Positions 20,428-27,037 of a DNA stretch of 45,014 nucleotides are shown here, in pieces. Under the pieces are notes generated by a model. That model was not told the origin of the DNA and ran no database searches. It saw only the letters and a list, made by a program, of their open reading frames with translations. Every line of letters starts with the position of its first letter. The first letter of the stretch is position 1. The DNA comes from Parcubacteria group bacterium Gr01-1014_13. GTDB lineage: Bacteria > Patescibacteriota > Patescibacteriia > Magasanikbacterales > GWA2-37-8. The stretch lies in NCBI GenBank assembly GCA_007376295.1, contig VMGB01000003.1, positions 137,106 through 182,119 of the forward strand, in the 5' to 3' direction. Made by a program: the position numbers and the translations under genes.

Positions 20428-20465
20428 AATTGCCTTTTTCTTTTATCCGCCCTATTGCGGATTTG

Positions 20466-20547
20466 TGCCGAAGGAGAGAATCGAACTCTCATGGATTGCT
20501 CCGCACGATTTTGAGTCGTGTGCGTCTACCAATTCCGCCACTTCGGC
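20466..20547 (-). tRNA. tRNA-Leu (anticodon CAA), class II with a long variable arm; CCA not encoded
   Basis: Minus-strand sequence GCCGAAG TG GCG GAATTGGTAGA CGC A CACGA CTCAAAA TCGTG CGGAGCAATCCAT GAGAG TTCGATT CTCTC CTTCGGC A folds into a cloverleaf. Confidence 0.9.
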
Positions 20548-20597: not shown

Positions 20598-21890
20598 TTA
20601 TGGTCTTAACCGGCCAATAGTTCGAGGGAAGGGAATACATTCACGAATATGCTCTACACCCGTAATCCAACGCACTGTGCGTTCTAAACCGATACCAAAA
20701 CCAGAATGCGGCACACTGCCGTATTTTCTTAAATCTAAATACCATTGATATTCTTCCGGGCTAAGTCCTTCGGCTTTTATTCTAGACAATAATAATTCAT
20801 AATCATCTTCGCGCTGACTGCCACCAATAAGCTCGCCCGCACCTTCAGTAGCGATTAAATCATCATTTAAAACCAATTCCGGATTCTCTGGATCACGTTT
20901 CATATAAAAAGGCTTGATGCTCTTTGGCCATTTCGCTATAAACACTGGCACCTCGGAATCTTTGGTTAGAAGACCTTCGTCGTCATTGCCTAAATCCTCA
21001 CCATATTTAATATCTGAACCCAACTCATGCAACTTGGCAATCGCTTGATCGTAAGTATAGCGAGTAAATGGCTGGTCAGCCTTTTCTAATGGTTCTGTAT
21101 TTCTTTCCAAAACTGTTAATTCTTCCTTACAATTTTTCAAACAATAACGGATAATATGCCGCACCAAACCCTCTTGAATATTTAAATTTTCGTCGTGCTC
21201 CACAAACGCAGCTTCCGCATCCATCATCCAAAATTCTGTCAGGTGGCGTTTAGTTTTGCTTTTCTCAGCGCGAAACACTGGACCAAAATCATAACAACGC
21301 CCTACAGAAGCAATAGCTGCTTCTATATACAACTGTCCAGATTGAGAGAGATACGCCGTGCCCAGATCAAAATATGGCACAGGGAAAAGTGTGGTGGTGC
21401 CTTCACAAGCATTGGGAGTAAATACTGGAGAATCTACTTTGATAAAACTTTCTTGGTGCAAATATTCACCGATGGCGGTAATGATAGCATCACGGACACG
21501 CAAAATAGCCCACTGTTTCTTACTGCGTAACCACAAATGACGATTCTCCATTAAAAAATCCGGTCCATGCTCTTTGTGAGCAATCGGATAATCCTGAGCT
21601 AATTGAATAATTTTAAAATCTTTAACTTGCAATTCGTAAACATTATCCTTTTTCGGATGTTTGCTAACTGTACCCAAAACCGCTACTGAAGATTCTTGAC
21701 TAACTTTTTCTACTAAATCCCAAATCTCAGGACTTAATTCTGCTTTAACAGCTACGGCCTGTATCCAACCAGTACCATCGCGTAACTCCAAAAAAGCGAT
21801 CGGCCCGGAAGATCGCTTGTTGTACAGCCAGCCTTTAATTTCTACCTCTTGGCCGACCAAATTAGCTAAATTTTTGATAAAAATAGACAT
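20598..21890 (-). CDS. asnS: asparagine--tRNA ligase
   Basis: N-terminal OB fold (GWLYNKRSSGPIAFLELRDGTG), class II motifs (FRAEKSKTKRHLTEFWMMDAEAAF, GSQRE, GFGIGLERTV). 430 aa. Confidence 0.92.
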   Translation of the reverse strand: MSIFIKNLANLVGQEVEIKGWLYNKRSSGPIAFLELRDGTGWIQAVAVKAELSPEIWDLVEKVSQESSVAVLGTVSKHPKKDNVYELQVKDFKIIQLAQDYPIAHKEHGPDFLMENRHLWLRSKKQWAILRVRDAIITAIGEYLHQESFIKVDSPVFTPNACEGTTTLFPVPYFDLGTAYLSQSGQLYIEAAIASVGRCYDFGPVFRAEKSKTKRHLTEFWMMDAEAAFVEHDENLNIQEGLVRHIIRYCLKNCKEELTVLERNTEPLEKADQPFTRYTYDQAIAKLHELGSDIKYGEDLGNDDEGLLTKDSEVPVFIAKWPKSIKPFYMKRDPENPELVLNDDLIATEGAGELIGGSQREDDYELLLSRIKAEGLSPEEYQWYLDLRKYGSVPHSGFGIGLERTVRWITGVEHIRECIPFPRTIGRLRP

Positions 21891-23298: not shown

Positions 23299-23688
23299 TT
23301 ATTTATTTCTTTCCAAATAACTTTGCAAAATTACCATAGCCGATTTTTCATCCCGGCTTGCACCTCCTCCACCCATTCTGTCGGCTGCCTGCGAAGAAAA
23401 TCTCTCGTCTTCAAATTCAATCGGAATACTGACGAGATCTTTTAGCTCGCTTACGAATTTTTTTATTTTTTTAGTATTTTCATTTTCTTTTCCTTCAAGT
23501 CCTAACGGCAATCCCACCACTACCTTGTCAATATTTTCTTTTTTTATCAATTTGACTAACTCTGCCAAATTTTTATCTCTAACAACGCCATACGGCAAAA
23601 CCACTCCTAGGCCTATCTGCGCCCAGGCCAAACCGATATTTTTTGTCCCGTAATCAACTGCCAATATATTCATACTATTATTTCTCAC
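23299..23688 (-). CDS. ruvX: Holliday junction resolvase-like / pre-16S rRNA nuclease RuvX (YqgF)
   Basis: ILAVDYGTKNIGLA and VVGLPL motifs. The start may instead be the ATG at 23673 (MNILAVDYG). Confidence 0.85.
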   Translation of the reverse strand: MRNNSMNILAVDYGTKNIGLAWAQIGLGVVLPYGVVRDKNLAELVKLIKKENIDKVVVGLPLGLEGKENENTKKIKKFVSELKDLVSIPIEFEDERFSSQAADRMGGGGASRDEKSAMVILQSYLERNK

Positions 23689-24481
23689 TCGGCCTTCGGG
23701 TAGCCACTATATTACCACTTTTTGTCACAATAATTGTGTGCTCAAAGTGAGCGGATAAAGAGTTATCAGCCATTCTTATAGTCCAACCATCTTCTGCGGT
23801 CTTTACTCGCCAGGTGCCCAAGGAAACCATTGGCTCAATAGCTACTACCATGCCCGGTTTGAGGATAATAAAATCCAGACCTCTGTCATAAAAATTTGGT
23901 ATTCTCGGTTCTTCGTGCACCTCATGACCCACGCCGTGACCGACTAAATCTTGCACTATACCGTACTTACCTTGCGATTTAATATAATCTTCTATGGCCT
24001 TACCAATATCAGCAATTGTATTACCTGGTTTAATTACCTTTATACCCCTCTCCAAGGATTCTTGAGTAACCCGTAAAAGTTCTCTGGTTTTGGGTGGAAT
24101 TTTGCCAATTGGAATAGTGACTGCGGTATCAGTGAAGTATCCTTCATCTTTTGGACCATTATATGGCCACTGCATACCGATATCGATAGTAAAAACATCT
24201 CCATTTTTCAAAATAGCAGTTTTTTTGGCAATCCCGTGCACCACCTCTTCATTTATGGAAGCGCAAATCGTACTAGGAAAAGGAATGTCCGAAGGTTTAT
24301 TTTTGTATCCTTTAAATGCTGGTCTGCCCCCGACTTCGATAATCATTTTTTCCGCTGCCTGATCTACTTCCCAAGTGGACATTCCTGGACGACACATTTT
24401 TGCCAAGTCATCCAAAATACGGCCCATAATTTGGCCGCCCTGTTTTATTAATTTTATTTCTTCCGGAGTTTTGATTAACAT
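23678..24481 (-). CDS. map: type I methionine aminopeptidase
   Basis: IKTPEEIKLIKQGG, VHGI, DIG, GHGVGHEVHE, EPM and EHT metal-ligand motifs. Start chosen at MLIKTPEEI (ATG at 24479-24481). Confidence 0.92.
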   Translation of the reverse strand: MLIKTPEEIKLIKQGGQIMGRILDDLAKMCRPGMSTWEVDQAAEKMIIEVGGRPAFKGYKNKPSDIPFPSTICASINEEVVHGIAKKTAILKNGDVFTIDIGMQWPYNGPKDEGYFTDTAVTIPIGKIPPKTRELLRVTQESLERGIKVIKPGNTIADIGKAIEDYIKSQGKYGIVQDLVGHGVGHEVHEEPRIPNFYDRGLDFIILKPGMVVAIEPMVSLGTWRVKTAEDGWTIRMADNSLSAHFEHTIIVTKSGNIVATRRPSEK

Positions 24482-24507
24482 ATTTTTAAGTAATAAATAG
24501 TTGGTGC

Positions 24508-24536
24508 TTGACACTGTAGAAACTATATGGTAGACT
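24508..24536 (+). promoter_or_regulatory. plus-strand promoter TTGACA-N17-(TGg)TAGACT, antisense to the ribosomal operon
   Basis: Consensus -35, a 17-nt spacer and an extended -10 TG. Located in the toxin-map intergenic region and pointing toward the 3' end of the MazF-like gene. Confidence 0.45.
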
Positions 24537-24542
24537 AAATTT

Positions 24543-24608
24543 ACAAATGGTTACCTCATCGGAGGTAGCTCCGAGATTCCTACCCCTTAAAAGGTAGGTT
24601 TCGTTTTT
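24543..24608 (+). ncRNA. candidate small RNA of about 65 nt (promoter, two hairpins and a T-tract)
   Basis: Downstream of the promoter: GGTTACCTC-atcg-GAGGTAGCT hairpin, then CCTACC-ccttaaaa-GGTAGG followed by TTTCGTTTTTT. There is no plus-strand ORF. The T-tract abuts the stop codon of the MazF-like gene. Confidence 0.35.
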
Positions 24609-25003
24609 TAAATTAATTTCCTTATTTCTTCGCGTATTTTTTCATAATCTTCCAACGGGAACATTCCGATCCTCCGTATTAATCTTTTACTGCTTAACAT
24701 TCTAAGCTGGGGCAAAATGGCGGCATATTCTTTACCGCCAAGTTTATACTGATAATAATACCGGTTTTCTTCTTTAATTTTGGTAGTTAATGGTATAGCC
24801 CACAATAAATGTTCATTAAATTTTTTGAAAACTAGTACCGGCCGCTCAAAATTGTCATTTTTGCCTTCCTCCTCATGACCAACATTAGCGCCTAAATTCA
24901 CCCACCAAATTTCACCCTCTCTAAAATAGACTAACTTTTCCGATAAATGAATTTTTGCCTTAATTTTTATCCATGCAACAAATCTGGTTAGAATTTCTTC
25001 CAT
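24608..25003 (-). CDS. solitary MazF/PemK-family toxin-like protein (131 aa)
   Basis: REGEIWWVNLGANVGHEEEGKNDNFERPVLVFKKF, then IPLTT, then QLRMLSSKRLIRRIG matches the PemK/MazF signature layout (G-I-W-V-L-x-G-x-E-x-G-x-RP-x-LV). There is no room for an antitoxin gene, because adk ends 17 nt upstream. Confidence 0.7.
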   Translation of the reverse strand: MEEILTRFVAWIKIKAKIHLSEKLVYFREGEIWWVNLGANVGHEEEGKNDNFERPVLVFKKFNEHLLWAIPLTTKIKEENRYYYQYKLGGKEYAAILPQLRMLSSKRLIRRIGMFPLEDYEKIREEIRKLI

Positions 25004-25020
25004 AATACGTAGTACTTTAT

Positions 25021-25680
25021 TTATTTCAAAACATCCTCAATATTATTTTCGACGTCTTCAATTGACTGATCGCCATCTATTTTTATTAGCACGCCCAGAT
25101 CTTTATAAAAATTAGTTATTGGACTAAGTGCCGCATTTCCCTGTTTAATAATTCGTTCTTTAATAATTTTTGGATCATCATCTTGTCTAGTTTGTAATTT
25201 ACCTCCACACTTCGGACAAGCTTTTAATTTTTTAGTAGCCGGAAGCCAAGGAACTATTTCTCCGCAATTTGTACAAACACGGCGTTTAGTAAGCCTTTCA
25301 AAAGATTCCTTATCGCTTAAAGATATTTCTAAAGCTAAAACTTCGTCTGCTAAATTTTTTGCTTTAAAAAAATCTTGAAATCCTCTCGCCTGTTCCAGAT
25401 TACGAATGGCGCCATCTAACACCACGCCTTTACCCATATTTATATTTTTTTCGATCTCGCTAAAAACTAGGTTGTAAATAAGTTTGTCGGATACAAGTTG
25501 ACCAGATTTCATCTGTTCGACAGCTTCTTTTTCCAAAGAATTTAGTTCGATTTTCTGCGCTAAGGAACGCAACAAGTCACCGCTAGAGAGATGGATAAAA
25601 CCATGCTTGGCGGCAATTTTTTTGGCTTGAGTGCCTTTACCCGAACCGGGTGGGCCAATCATGATAATTATCTTACGCAT
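25021..25680 (-). CDS. adk: adenylate kinase (zinc-lid type)
   Basis: P-loop (GPPGSGKGTQAKKIA) and lid (CTNCGE...CPKCGG). Confidence 0.95.
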   Translation of the reverse strand: MRKIIIMIGPPGSGKGTQAKKIAAKHGFIHLSSGDLLRSLAQKIELNSLEKEAVEQMKSGQLVSDKLIYNLVFSEIEKNINMGKGVVLDGAIRNLEQARGFQDFFKAKNLADEVLALEISLSDKESFERLTKRRVCTNCGEIVPWLPATKKLKACPKCGGKLQTRQDDDPKIIKERIIKQGNAALSPITNFYKDLGVLIKIDGDQSIEDVENNIEDVLK

Positions 25681-25762: not shown

Positions 25763-27037
25763 TTAAACCGTATCGTAAGCATGCATTGTAATCTGCGCAT
25801 CAATCTGTTTGGCTGTTTCAATAGCTACTGAAACCACGATTAACAAACTGGCTCCGCCAATTGCTAAACTCTGGGTACCCATTAAATATTGAACTAATAG
25901 CGGAAGGATAGCGATGACACCCAAGAATAAAGCGCCGGTAAAATTGATCCTATTCATAGTTTGACCAAGATATTTTTCAGTTTCTGTACCAGGGCGAATA
26001 CCAGGAATAAAGCCGCCTTGCTTTTGCAAATTCTCAGCCATCTTTTGCGGATGGAAAATAACAGCGGTATAAAAATACGTAAATCCAAATACTAACAAGA
26101 AGTACATGACTCCGTAAAATAATTGATTTTGGAACAAATTAATTGTCTGAGTACCGAGATTAGCCAACCAACCAGCGTTTGCTTGCGCAAAAAACTGAGC
26201 AATAAGTGAAGGGAACGAAAGTAAGGCAATGGCAAAGATAATTGGTATTACTCCAGCCATACTTACACGTAATGGTAAATGGGTACTATTGCCACCCTGC
26301 ATGCGATTTCCTACTACCTGTTTAGCGTAATTTATTGGGATATTTCTTTGGCCTTGGTTAATAAACACAACACCGACCACCGTTAAAATTGCTGCGGCTG
26401 CGAATAGAACAAAGGTAAAAAACTGAGACGAATCATAATTTATTAAAACAGTACGTAATCCTCCGGGTAAACCGGCAGCAATACCGGCAAATATTAACAA
26501 GGAGATACCATTACCAACTTTCTGCTCGGAGATAAGTTCACCTATCCACATCAGGAACATTGTACCAGCGGTAATTGTCATCATGATTGTAACCAAACGG
26601 AAAAATGACAAATCGGTGATAATTGGCAAAGATGAACTGCTTAATAGTTTTATCATTGCGTAAGATTGCAAAAAAGCCAATGGTACAGCCAAAAATCTGG
26701 TATACATGTTTATTTTTTGTTGACCAGACTCACCTTCTTTAGAAAGTTCCTCTAGTTTTGGCACAATCATGGTCAGCAACTGGAAAATAATCGAGGATGT
26801 GATATATGGACCAACGCCTAACATGACGATAGAAAAATTACTCATGGTACCGCCAGAAAAAACATCGAGTAATCCAAAAATCTGATTCCCAGCAAGAAAC
26901 TGACGCAAGTTATCTAAATTAACACCTGGAATAGGTATGTGGGCGACCAATCTAAAAATCACCAGCATCCCTAAAACGTAGAGAATTTTATTTCTGATGT
27001 CTTTGATCGTCCAAACTTGCTGTAGTTTTTGCCACAT
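25763..27037 (-). CDS. secY: preprotein translocase subunit SecY
   Basis: Ten-TM profile, IPGVN and GGTMSNFSIVMLGVGPYITSSII motifs, and its position after rplO. Confidence 0.95.
   Translation of the reverse strand: MWQKLQQVWTIKDIRNKILYVLGMLVIFRLVAHIPIPGVNLDNLRQFLAGNQIFGLLDVFSGGTMSNFSIVMLGVGPYITSSIIFQLLTMIVPKLEELSKEGESGQQKINMYTRFLAVPLAFLQSYAMIKLLSSSSLPIITDLSFFRLVTIMMTITAGTMFLMWIGELISEQKVGNGISLLIFAGIAAGLPGGLRTVLINYDSSQFFTFVLFAAAAILTVVGVVFINQGQRNIPINYAKQVVGNRMQGGNSTHLPLRVSMAGVIPIIFAIALLSFPSLIAQFFAQANAGWLANLGTQTINLFQNQLFYGVMYFLLVFGFTYFYTAVIFHPQKMAENLQKQGGFIPGIRPGTETEKYLGQTMNRINFTGALFLGVIAILPLLVQYLMGTQSLAIGGASLLIVVSVAIETAKQIDAQITMHAYDTV

Follow-up and report, generated by a model that had tools for sequence, protein, structure and literature searches.

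The window analysed here, a stretch of 45,014 nucleotides (nt) from Parcubacteria group bacterium Gr01-1014_13 (contig VMGB01000003.1, positions 137,106 to 182,119), carries on its minus strand, in this order, secY (25763-27037), adk, an open reading frame (ORF) encoding a 131-aa protein that resembles PemK/MazF-family endoribonucleases, and map. On the opposite strand, a predicted small RNA (sRNA) gene converges on this toxin-like gene and ends at its stop codon (Table 1). The initial annotation of this DNA had already reported a PemK/MazF-like gene between adk and map in place of the usual secY-adk-map succession, and the same coordinates were obtained here. Its main hypothesis was that a MazF-like toxin without a protein antitoxin is guarded by a convergent sRNA; its alternative was a domesticated RNase, with the hairpins in the spacer acting as operon-internal processing sites. 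Strict linkage of the toxin and sRNA genes across genomes, insertion of both into the operon, retention of the MazF catalytic residues and a homologue on the Campylobacter plasmid pVir together support the former proposal.

Table 1. Features of the adk-map junction, given as positions in the window
Feature	Position	Strand	Evidence and remarks
Toxin gene, 131-aa PemK/MazF-family endoribonuclease-like protein	24608..25003	-	Pfam PF02452; TAA at 24608-24610
Predicted sRNA, ~67 nt: 5'-ACAAAU, P1, CUCCGAG, P2, UCGUUUUUU-3'	24543..24609	+	Covariance model R1; fold z
sRNA promoter: -35 TTGACA 24508-24513, 17-nt spacer, extended -10 TGgTAGACT 24528-24536	24508..24536	+	Promoter scan
Hairpin P1, DNA GGTTACCTC/GAGGTAGCT, RNA GGUUACCUC/GAGGUAGCU, loop AUCG	24549..24570	+	Fold; compensatory changes
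Linker CUCCGAG between the hairpins	24569..24575	+	Most conserved RNA element
Hairpin P2 and U-tract, intrinsic terminator	24572..24609	+	Terminator scan, fold, covariation
Inserted cassette, ~536 nt	24485..25020		Between the adk stop codon (25021-25023) and the AAT-ATG of map
adk	25021..25680	-	Left flank of the insertion; Pfam ADK, E 1.4e-28
map (methionine aminopeptidase)	23678..24481	-	Right flank of the insertion; Pfam Peptidase_M24, E 2.1e-48

The gap between the end of adk and the toxin ORF measures 17 nt. Judged by the alignment of relatives and by the public gene call, map most likely starts at ATG 24481 (MLIKTPEE), so that the spacer between the toxin gene and map is 126 nt long, not 93 nt as first given, and the -35 box of the sRNA promoter falls in non-coding DNA. 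In the three closest Adk relatives (84-92% identity), the gene order is secY-adk-map-ruvX-recO, and the adk TAA is followed by AAT, a 3-nt spacer, and then by the map ATG. The empty adk-AAT-map site in these relatives implies that the ~536-nt cassette, consisting of the toxin ORF and the sRNA gene plus promoter, flanked by 17 nt on the adk side and ~23 nt on the map side, was inserted at exactly that point. On this comparison, we regard the toxin-sRNA cassette as an insertion into the adk-AAT-map junction. Its ends are ambiguous by a few A/T bases and, A/T-rich as they are, define no clear target duplication. No recombinase gene is present inside the ~536 nt.

The identity of the toxin was examined at the level of sequence profiles and of predicted structure. 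Comparison with the hidden Markov model of Pfam family PF02452 (PemK_toxin), which had been advised at the outset, yields a significant match (E 9.3e-14; 52 bits against a gathering score of 23.1) that covers residues 29-130 (102 residues) and profile positions 2-108 of 109. With a profile of 31 homologues, the best solved relative in the PDB is B. subtilis MazF/EndoA (E 1.3e-6). In this alignment, the R54-P55 pair, invariant in the 31 homologues, stands opposite the EndoA Arg-Pro, and T73, the first Thr of the PLTT motif, stands opposite the active-site Thr; R25 and T48 of B. subtilis MazF (4MDX) are the catalytic Arg and Thr. Absence of the MazF catalytic residues had been named as grounds against the original proposal. 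By the alignment, both Arg and Thr are kept in the window toxin.

In the AlphaFold2 model of the protein (mean predicted local distance difference test score, pLDDT, 84), the toxin is predicted to adopt the MazF/Kid SH3-like barrel fold. The top 50 Foldseek matches in the PDB are all MazF-family toxins (probability 1.0; query-normalised TM-score 0.58-0.67), among them MazF, B. subtilis YdcE/EndoA and B. anthracis MoxT. Two elements of the model stand out. An extra N-terminal helix spans residues 2-20 and includes W11 and K15, which are invariant in the toxin family, and the β1-β2 loop is enlarged, with residues 39-48 modelled at low confidence (pLDDT <50) and predicted to be flexible. The conserved residues of the loop region are G38, N40, G42, E44, G47, K48, F52, R54 and P55. 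As for existing classifications, the PADLOC models give no match to the toxin and NCBIfam gives a weak MazF match only, while homologues in Magasanikbacteria and other Patescibacteria are publicly annotated as 'type II toxin-antitoxin system PemK/MazF family toxin'.

MazF of B. subtilis and of S. aureus has a UACAU-like specificity. Across 60 toxin ORFs (window 24611-25003 and related loci L001-L086), ACAU is the most depleted 4-mer, with 48 occurrences observed and 85 expected from synonymous-codon shuffles (ratio 0.56, z = -5.8), and UACAU is found 9 times against an expectation of 19.7. Depletion of ACAU is weaker in 85 neighbouring genes (ratio 0.87). These counts offer no more than a hint that the toxin may be a nuclease of UACAU-like specificity that spares its own message.

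The sRNA gene lies in the 126-nt spacer downstream of the toxin gene. Its promoter, TTGACA-17-TAGACT preceded by TG, is the best promoter-like site within 6 kb in a scan of both strands. It would act as a strong promoter of the sigma-70 type. This near-consensus promoter is present as originally described and is conserved in relatives: a TTGACA-N16-18-TATAAT site agreeing at no fewer than 10 of 12 positions lies at the equivalent position in 55 of 66 unique related loci, and such a site turns up in 2.6% of random search windows of the same size in the same loci. The sRNA is expected to start at A24543, 7 nt past the -10 box, and the spacing from the -10 box to the start of ACAAAUGG is conserved in relatives. 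The two hairpins and the tail ending at the toxin stop, earlier read as a transcript of ~65 nt, were found again, the predicted RNA being ~67 nt long. The final two U residues of the RNA coincide with bases of the toxin stop codon on the other strand. P1 contains two G.U pairs, which form on the plus strand only. The terminator scan identified CCTACC/GGTAGG at 24579-24598 followed by TTTCGTTTTT; in the RNA, this P2 core (CCUACC/GGUAGG) is extended by CGAGA/UUUCG and followed by UUUUUU at 24604-24609. The plus-strand RNA folds at -24.4 kcal/mol (z = -4.55), a value equalled by 0 of 200 shuffles, and the minus strand of the spacer has a fold z of -0.61.

Within the window alone, however, neither promoter-like sites (16, against 17.0 after shuffling) nor terminator-like sites (7, against 5.4) exceed the chance expectation, so that the case for an RNA gene rests on comparison with other genomes. 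Such counts would also suit an explanation in which the hairpins are operon terminators, processing sites or a repeated extragenic element and the promoter match arose by chance.

For this comparison, 86 loci with toxin homologues were used, 6 from reference genomes and 80 from metagenomes, with toxin identities of about 35-90%. A covariance model, R1, was built from 60 unique RNAs and searched against 386 kb, comprising the window and the 86 loci. In the window, R1 matches positions 24540-24609 of the plus strand (69.2 bits, E 1.2e-15). A match directly after the toxin stop and on the opposite strand is found in the window and in 84 of the 86 loci. The two misses are L013, where the contig ends inside the toxin gene, and L006, which has a variant RNA: each of its two tandem toxin genes has behind it a convergent promoter and an RNA that also forms two hairpins but differs in sequence. 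R1 also matches at the same position next to P0079 and P0090, the most distant homologues tested (33-42% identity). In the five closest genome loci (79-89% identity), there is no adk or map nearby and all flanks differ; conservation extends over the ~95 nt that follow the toxin stop, with compensatory changes in hairpin 1, and the same holds in metagenome loci down to ~40% identity. A spacer not conserved where the gene is conserved would have spoken against the original proposal, and the retention of the RNA at nearly all loci is the opposite outcome. The toxin gene and the convergent sRNA gene are confirmed by these alignments as one portable unit found in unrelated contexts, including a second housekeeping gene array: in L069, L077, L080 and L086, the cassette lies directly 3' of rpoC, before dnaG.

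The family is large, with toxin relatives encoded in at least 535 of the best 600 candidate stretches of one metagenome scan. Some loci carry two cassettes, in tandem or close together (L006, 2995-3372 and 3599-3988; L051, 843-1232 and 2495-2872; L020, 395-772 and 1896-2276), and the second cassette of L006 and of L020 belongs to a different RNA class without CUCCGAG. The same convergent geometry combined with an unrelated RNA sequence is seen in L006, in the second copy of L020, in L099 and L100, on a Nitratiruptor plasmid and on C. jejuni pVir. Two orphan sRNAs have intact promoters and no toxin ORF beside them (L087, 4338-4398, and L081, 789-854, both on the minus strand), and no toxin remnants are detectable next to either. 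The L087 orphan is preceded by the promoter TTGCAA-17-TATAAT, agrees with the cognate RNA, located 1 kb away, in P1 and linker but has a different, compensated P2, and adjoins a RelB/YafQ type II pair. Conversely, no intact toxin gene without such an RNA was found among the loci examined. The occurrence of orphan sRNAs, but not of orphan intact toxins, fits a toxin-antitoxin (TA) relationship. An exact 17-mer search of viral contigs returned four chance matches, none of which is recognised by the covariance model.

Some individual members of the family deserve mention. L003 (CAYZHG010000051.1) is titled 'uncultured Gammaproteobacteria bacterium', and its cassette is 82% identical to Magasanikbacteria ones; this is probably a mis-binned contig. 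In L025, L026 and L052, a palindrome, AGTGATAT(T)ATATCACTATAA, is located 20-40 nt upstream of the toxin ATG and overlaps a -10-like box. The toxin N-terminus of L052 is quite unlike that of L025 and L026, the palindrome being common to all three, and it may represent an operator or a shared promoter module.

The consensus of the RNA gene reads TTGACA, 16-17 nt, a TATAAT-like box, ~7 nt, 5'-ACAAAUGG, P1, CUCCGAG, P2 and (A/U)UCGUUUUUU-3', the final bases of the RNA being the reverse complement of the toxin TAA. The elements conserved across loci are the promoter, the 5' ACAAAUGG, the CUCCGAG linker and the UCGUUUU tail. In the linker, C, G, A and G are invariant among the 60 unique RNAs and the remaining C, U and C are conserved in at least 90%, with the same picture in an alignment of 88 matches. 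P1, on the other hand, varies freely in sequence and length among 64 unique RNAs, and the hairpin still forms in nearly all of them; compensatory pairs in close relatives include GGUUACCC/GGGUAGCU, GGUUGCCCC/GGGGUAGCU and GGUUACCUU/GAGGUAGCU. The covariation analysis of the spacer that had been recommended was thereby extended to all toxin-homologue loci, and the stems do covary. In the alignment fitted to the model, both partners have changed in 11 of 12 pairs and in 8 of the 9 outer P2 pairs, and 140 cells are changed on both sides against 67.6 +/- 6.2 in shuffles, with 0 of 500 shuffles reaching 140. When partner columns were slid as a control, every covariation measure was lower. As an extended variant with an added terminator, the RNAs of L017, L020, L027 and L041 have, between their UCGUUU end and the toxin stop, a further, third hairpin that is GC-rich, and a U-run.

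The strand of the RNA was assessed by folding both strands of each of the 64 sequences separately, since counts of G.U and A.C pairs are uninformative on the model-fitted alignment (60 versus 60). The plus (sRNA) strand folds better in 57 of the 64 sequences (-23.6 versus -20.1 kcal/mol; Wilcoxon p = 6e-10) and forms 110 G.U pairs against 49 on the toxin strand. No U-run follows the hairpins on the toxin strand. These comparisons, with which the promoter and the U-tract agree, indicate that the functional RNA strand is the one opposite the toxin gene. The structure has strong comparative support and appears to lie outside any Rfam family: there is no match on the sRNA at gathering score in the window and 20 loci, or at E up to 10 on 24400-24700, and the best sub-threshold match, RAGATH-30, reaches 17 bits against a threshold of 59.5 and is on the wrong strand. 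A coding function of the sRNA was considered and rejected. Of 64 RNAs, 15 have no leader ATG, and the conserved core is distributed over all three frames (11/22/16), from which it follows that the RNA encodes no peptide.

The initial annotation had further pointed to Shine-Dalgarno (SD)-like and anti-SD-like halves in hairpin 1. These are not conserved in relatives and, because the stem sequences vary freely, this interpretation was dropped. The source genome itself is largely SD-less. An SD-like sequence, even of 4 nt, precedes only 15 of the 46 window ORFs of at least 120 aa, ribosomal protein genes included, and translation initiation in this organism appears to proceed largely without SD sequences.

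That the hairpins are no more than terminators, processing sites or a repeated extragenic element is very hard to believe. The promoter and its spacing to the RNA start, the two hairpins and the U-tract stay together as a conserved unit opposite the toxin gene in all but the two loci noted, G.U pairs and folding energies favour the sRNA strand, the toxin strand has no U-run behind the hairpins, and the analogous C. jejuni RNA described below is a discrete 77-nt Northern band. The earlier alternative of a domesticated RNase with operon-internal processing hairpins is likewise not borne out, as the hairpins belong to a promoter-to-terminator unit that resides on the other strand and moves with the toxin gene.

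A protein antitoxin was sought in the surroundings of the toxin genes. Among 692 ORFs of at least 45 aa within ~1.2 kb of 75 unique toxin genes, no conserved neighbour protein emerged, the largest cluster comprising 4 loci, and the sequences upstream of the toxin start codon are unrelated between loci. In the window, there are 17 nt on one side of the toxin gene and the sRNA gene on the other, and the previous statement that no protein antitoxin lies alongside thus stands. A further proposal is that the toxin is of the usual type II kind, that its protein antitoxin has its gene at another place in the genome or escapes recognition through small size or divergence, and that the RNA is incidental. 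It draws on the type II names that NCBI gives to the homologues and on the Nitratiruptor plasmid (L092), where, on the toxin strand, a 62-aa ribbon-helix-helix-like ORF (1955-2143) comes after the toxin-sRNA unit and upstream of the rep gene of the plasmid. This ORF could encode a copy-number repressor or a protein partner. We nevertheless judge the proposal improbable: no ORF of the above size is common to more than 4 of the 75 unique loci, the upstream sequences share nothing and leave only 17 nt after adk, a cassette that left its antitoxin behind would be lethal and the sRNA is never left behind, and the RNA, for the reasons given above (ATG absent in 15/64; three frames), does not code for a small antitoxin peptide.

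The cassette was compared with the established TA types. It shares with MazEF, PemIK and Kid-Kis the fold and the catalytic residues of the toxin, the nearest structures being MazF of B. subtilis, S. aureus, M. tuberculosis and E. coli, and differs from them in lacking a MazE/PemI-type gene, in the extra N-terminal helix, in the enlarged β1-β2 loop and in having an RNA partner. An adjacent, co-transcribed protein antitoxin gene, the hallmark of type II, is not found. The arrangement is therefore not canonical type II, as had been suspected from the window alone, because the defining protein antitoxin is absent.

In the B. subtilis pairs txpA/RatA, bsrG/SR4 and bsrE/SR5, a convergent, cis-encoded RNA antitoxin is transcribed from a promoter of its own to a terminator of its own; its sequence overlaps that of the toxin transcript at the 3' end, and it is present in excess over the toxin mRNA. 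The window family resembles these pairs in having a convergent, cis-encoded RNA gene with a predicted promoter and terminator. A cis-encoded antisense RNA gene overlapping the toxin transcript, as type I demands, is predicted at the 84 loci matched by R1 (of 86). In contrast, the toxins of the B. subtilis pairs are small hydrophobic membrane peptides, whereas the window toxin is a predicted soluble protein of 131 aa with a MazF fold, well beyond the hydrophobic peptide of under ~60 aa that characterises type I; moreover, the overlap in the window is confined to the stop codon and the 3' untranslated region (UTR), and the RNA has strongly conserved single-stranded motifs. The cassette is accordingly not a typical type I system, since its toxin is a 131-aa RNase.

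Type III systems (ToxIN, AbiQ/antiQ, CptIN and TenpIN) also combine an endoribonuclease of Kid/MazF-like fold with a small structured RNA. Their antitoxins, however, are tandem direct repeats that lie upstream on the same strand, are separated from the toxin gene by a terminator and are processed by the toxin, whereas the window RNA is single-copy, convergent, downstream and driven by its own promoter. No upstream, same-strand repeat array is present, the window having a single RNA unit and only 17 nt upstream of the toxin gene, and for want of such an array the cassette is not type III. No ToxN-type family appears among the Pfam matches at E up to 0.1. Finally, the pemK RNA motif of Rfam is reportedly associated with pemK/mazF-annotated genes in Firmicutes, upstream and in the same orientation. 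It is not mentioned in the main text of Weinberg et al. 2017, to which it is said to go back, and the DecoyFinder paper gives its name only. Its covariance model does not match the window RNA, at either the gathering threshold or E up to 10.

A tblastn search of plasmid and phage records located further homologues on Campylobacter, Helicobacter and Nitratiruptor plasmids and in Campylobacter CJIE4 prophages. One of them, CJJ81176_pVir0047 (134 aa), shares 32% identity with the window toxin over 116 aa (BLASTP, E 2e-16), beginning at the N-terminal F..W...K motif. The region downstream of pVir0047 was predicted to contain TGATATAAT as a convergent promoter, and a structured RNA that extends to the toxin stop. 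In C. jejuni, the sRNA CJpv3, 77 nt long and running from 31119 to 31043 on the minus strand, was detected by differential RNA sequencing and Northern blot (Dugar et al. 2013, PMC3656092). It is convergent to pVir0047 and ends ~5 nt from the toxin stop codon. The height of its start site (31119) was 16164, compared with 28 for pVir0047 (30608), a ~580-fold difference (Dugar et al. 2013, PMC3656092).

Like the window cassette, the pVir pair consists of a homologous toxin without an adjacent protein antitoxin and a convergent structured sRNA with its own promoter. Unlike the window RNA, CJpv3 folds into three hairpins, has neither CUCCGAG nor ACAAAUGG and is unrelated in sequence; R1 scores no better than noise on either pVir or the Nitratiruptor plasmid. 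The hosts differ as well, the pVir type being found on plasmids and prophages of Campylobacterota and the window family on chromosomes of Patescibacteria. On pVir, a pair named CjrA/CjpT was reportedly described by Shen and colleagues in 2016 as a type I system of unusual kind whose toxin is a protein. From the position of CJpv3, CjpT is likely pVir0047 and CjrA likely CJpv3. CjrA is cited in two papers as the antisense RNA antitoxin of a type I system on pVir of C. jejuni 81-176. Judged by toxin homology and gene arrangement, the window cassette belongs with the PemK-like/CJpv3 pair of pVir and would extend this pair to a large, unannotated family in Patescibacteria.

We consider it somewhat better than an even bet that the element is a horizontally moving RNA-antitoxin cassette operating by antisense action, where we infer toxicity, neutralisation by the RNA and the antisense mode alike. 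An antitoxin role of the sRNA, by whichever mode, is very probable in the light of the comparisons described above. In only 3 of 60 loci does the sRNA gene contain a toxin-sense terminator-like site; in a number of loci, such a site follows just beyond the sRNA promoter. With no toxin-sense terminator ahead of the sRNA gene, the toxin transcript probably reads through it and carries the full complement of the sRNA, a complementarity to the 3' UTR of the toxin mRNA that follows automatically from the gene arrangement. Under this model, the toxin transcript would run through the sRNA gene and its 3' part would be perfectly complementary to an abundant sRNA. Formation of the sRNA-toxin mRNA duplex, together with collision of the convergent polymerases, would leave less translatable toxin mRNA, and a large excess of the sRNA, as measured in Campylobacter, would keep the toxin mRNA low. 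Such an arrangement would amount to type I with a 3' overlap, which would also be the reported mode of CjrA, if the CjrA locus is the same.

Several observations weigh against antisense action. Between loci whose toxins share no more than 40-50% identity, the CUCCGAG linker and the 5' ACAAAUGG hardly vary, whereas a cis-antisense RNA needs no conserved sequence; this points to an extra constraint, for example recognition by a protein or an RNase. The overlap takes in nothing but the stop codon and the 3' UTR, a long way from the region to which ribosomes bind. Pairing of the sRNA in trans with the toxin translation start was examined as a candidate and rejected, cognate and non-cognate duplex energies being equal (p = 0.19) and reverse-complement motifs being absent. 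RNAalifold recovers only 5 pairs on the model-fitted alignment, because the variable-length stems fall into insert columns, and column-based covariation is weakened to that extent. As regards the parallel with pVir, a second sRNA of that plasmid, CJpv2, is an alternative candidate for CjrA.

A constraint on the linker would be accounted for if the sRNA antitoxin binds the toxin directly, as in type III, and its convergent position reflects genetic linkage only, which we regard as possible if doubtful. More specifically, the single-stranded CUCCGAG between the hairpins might, as a tentative suggestion, sit as a pseudo-substrate in the RNA groove of a MazF-type dimer. The cassette would then combine a type III mechanism with type I geometry (single copy, convergent, own promoter) and be abundant in Patescibacteria, and the N-terminal helix and the enlarged β1-β2 loop could conceivably form the RNA-docking surface. 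Conservation of single-stranded motifs alongside freely covarying stems is the pattern of a protein-recognised RNA, and the highly conserved, predicted-flexible loop, the additional helix with its invariant W and K, and the absence of sRNA complementarity to the translation start region are in keeping with direct binding. The RNA-inhibited toxins ToxN and AbiQ, moreover, share the Kid/MazF-like fold. Nonetheless, CUCCGAG is absent from the RNAs of L006, the second module of L020, L099, L100 and Nitratiruptor, as well as from CJpv3; what is universal is the geometry, convergent and ending at the stop, not a sequence motif, and a protein-binding RNA would need no fixed position. In addition, the Campylobacter RNA antitoxin is described as antisense and type I.

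The strict linkage of protein and RNA could also mean that the protein is not a growth-arresting toxin, and instead a dedicated RNase or RNA-binding protein for which the sRNA is a partner or a target in a regulatory or defence ribonucleoprotein, for instance an anti-phage one. The placement of cassettes inside essential operons (adk/map in the window; rpoC/dnaG in the four loci listed above) and the homologues on Campylobacter prophages and plasmids are compatible with such a role. We think it unlikely, given that the MazF catalytic residues and fold are kept, that multiple or tandem copies, orphan RNAs, a patchy distribution and an adjacent classical TA pair are typical of selfish TA cassettes, that PADLOC returns no match, and that ACAU/UACAU avoidance is stronger in the toxin ORFs than in their neighbours (0.56 versus 0.87).

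If the element is indeed an antisense-controlled toxin cassette, its position has a consequence for the host operon. Neither a promoter scan nor sequence inspection revealed a convincing minus-strand promoter between the sRNA gene and map. With map downstream of the cassette, operon transcription has to pass through the convergent sRNA gene, and expression of map would be tied to transcription through the cassette. Map expression thus probably depends on transcription running head-on through a strong convergent promoter, with the map mRNA carrying the antisense target. A cassette that sits within the essential secY-adk-map operon, with a convergent promoter and an antisense RNA ahead of map, would be a natural instance of coupling between a selfish module and housekeeping genes. 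A promoter-like site on the minus strand (TTGAAA-16-TATTAT, 25029-25002) was considered as a toxin promoter and discarded: it overlaps the toxin ATG and therefore cannot serve that start codon.

Beyond the window, a branch of the toxins publicly listed as 'type II PemK/MazF' appears to lack a protein antitoxin and to be paired with an sRNA, which would change both annotation and searches. The reduced genomes of Patescibacteria, whose small RNAs are, to our knowledge, almost entirely uncharted, would commonly harbour nuclease toxins under RNA control. With its strong comparative support and its absence from Rfam, the sRNA would constitute a new RNA family, and C. jejuni pVir offers a tractable relative in which the mode of action could be addressed.

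Some further observations concern the surroundings of the cassettes. Sequences resembling tRNA 3' ends (of the GGTTCGAATCC type) abut the cassette on both flanks in L068 and upstream of the toxin gene in L011 and L070, an indication that the cassette often neighbours, or inserts at, tRNA genes. In L097 (2646-3433), map is called as two overlapping ORFs of 122 and 166 aa, reflecting either a frameshift or an assembly error. The sole Rfam/ARAGORN RNA match in the 45-kb window is a tRNA-Leu(CAA) at 20465-20547 on the minus strand, which adjoins an aminoacyl-tRNA-synthetase-like ORF (20598-21890).

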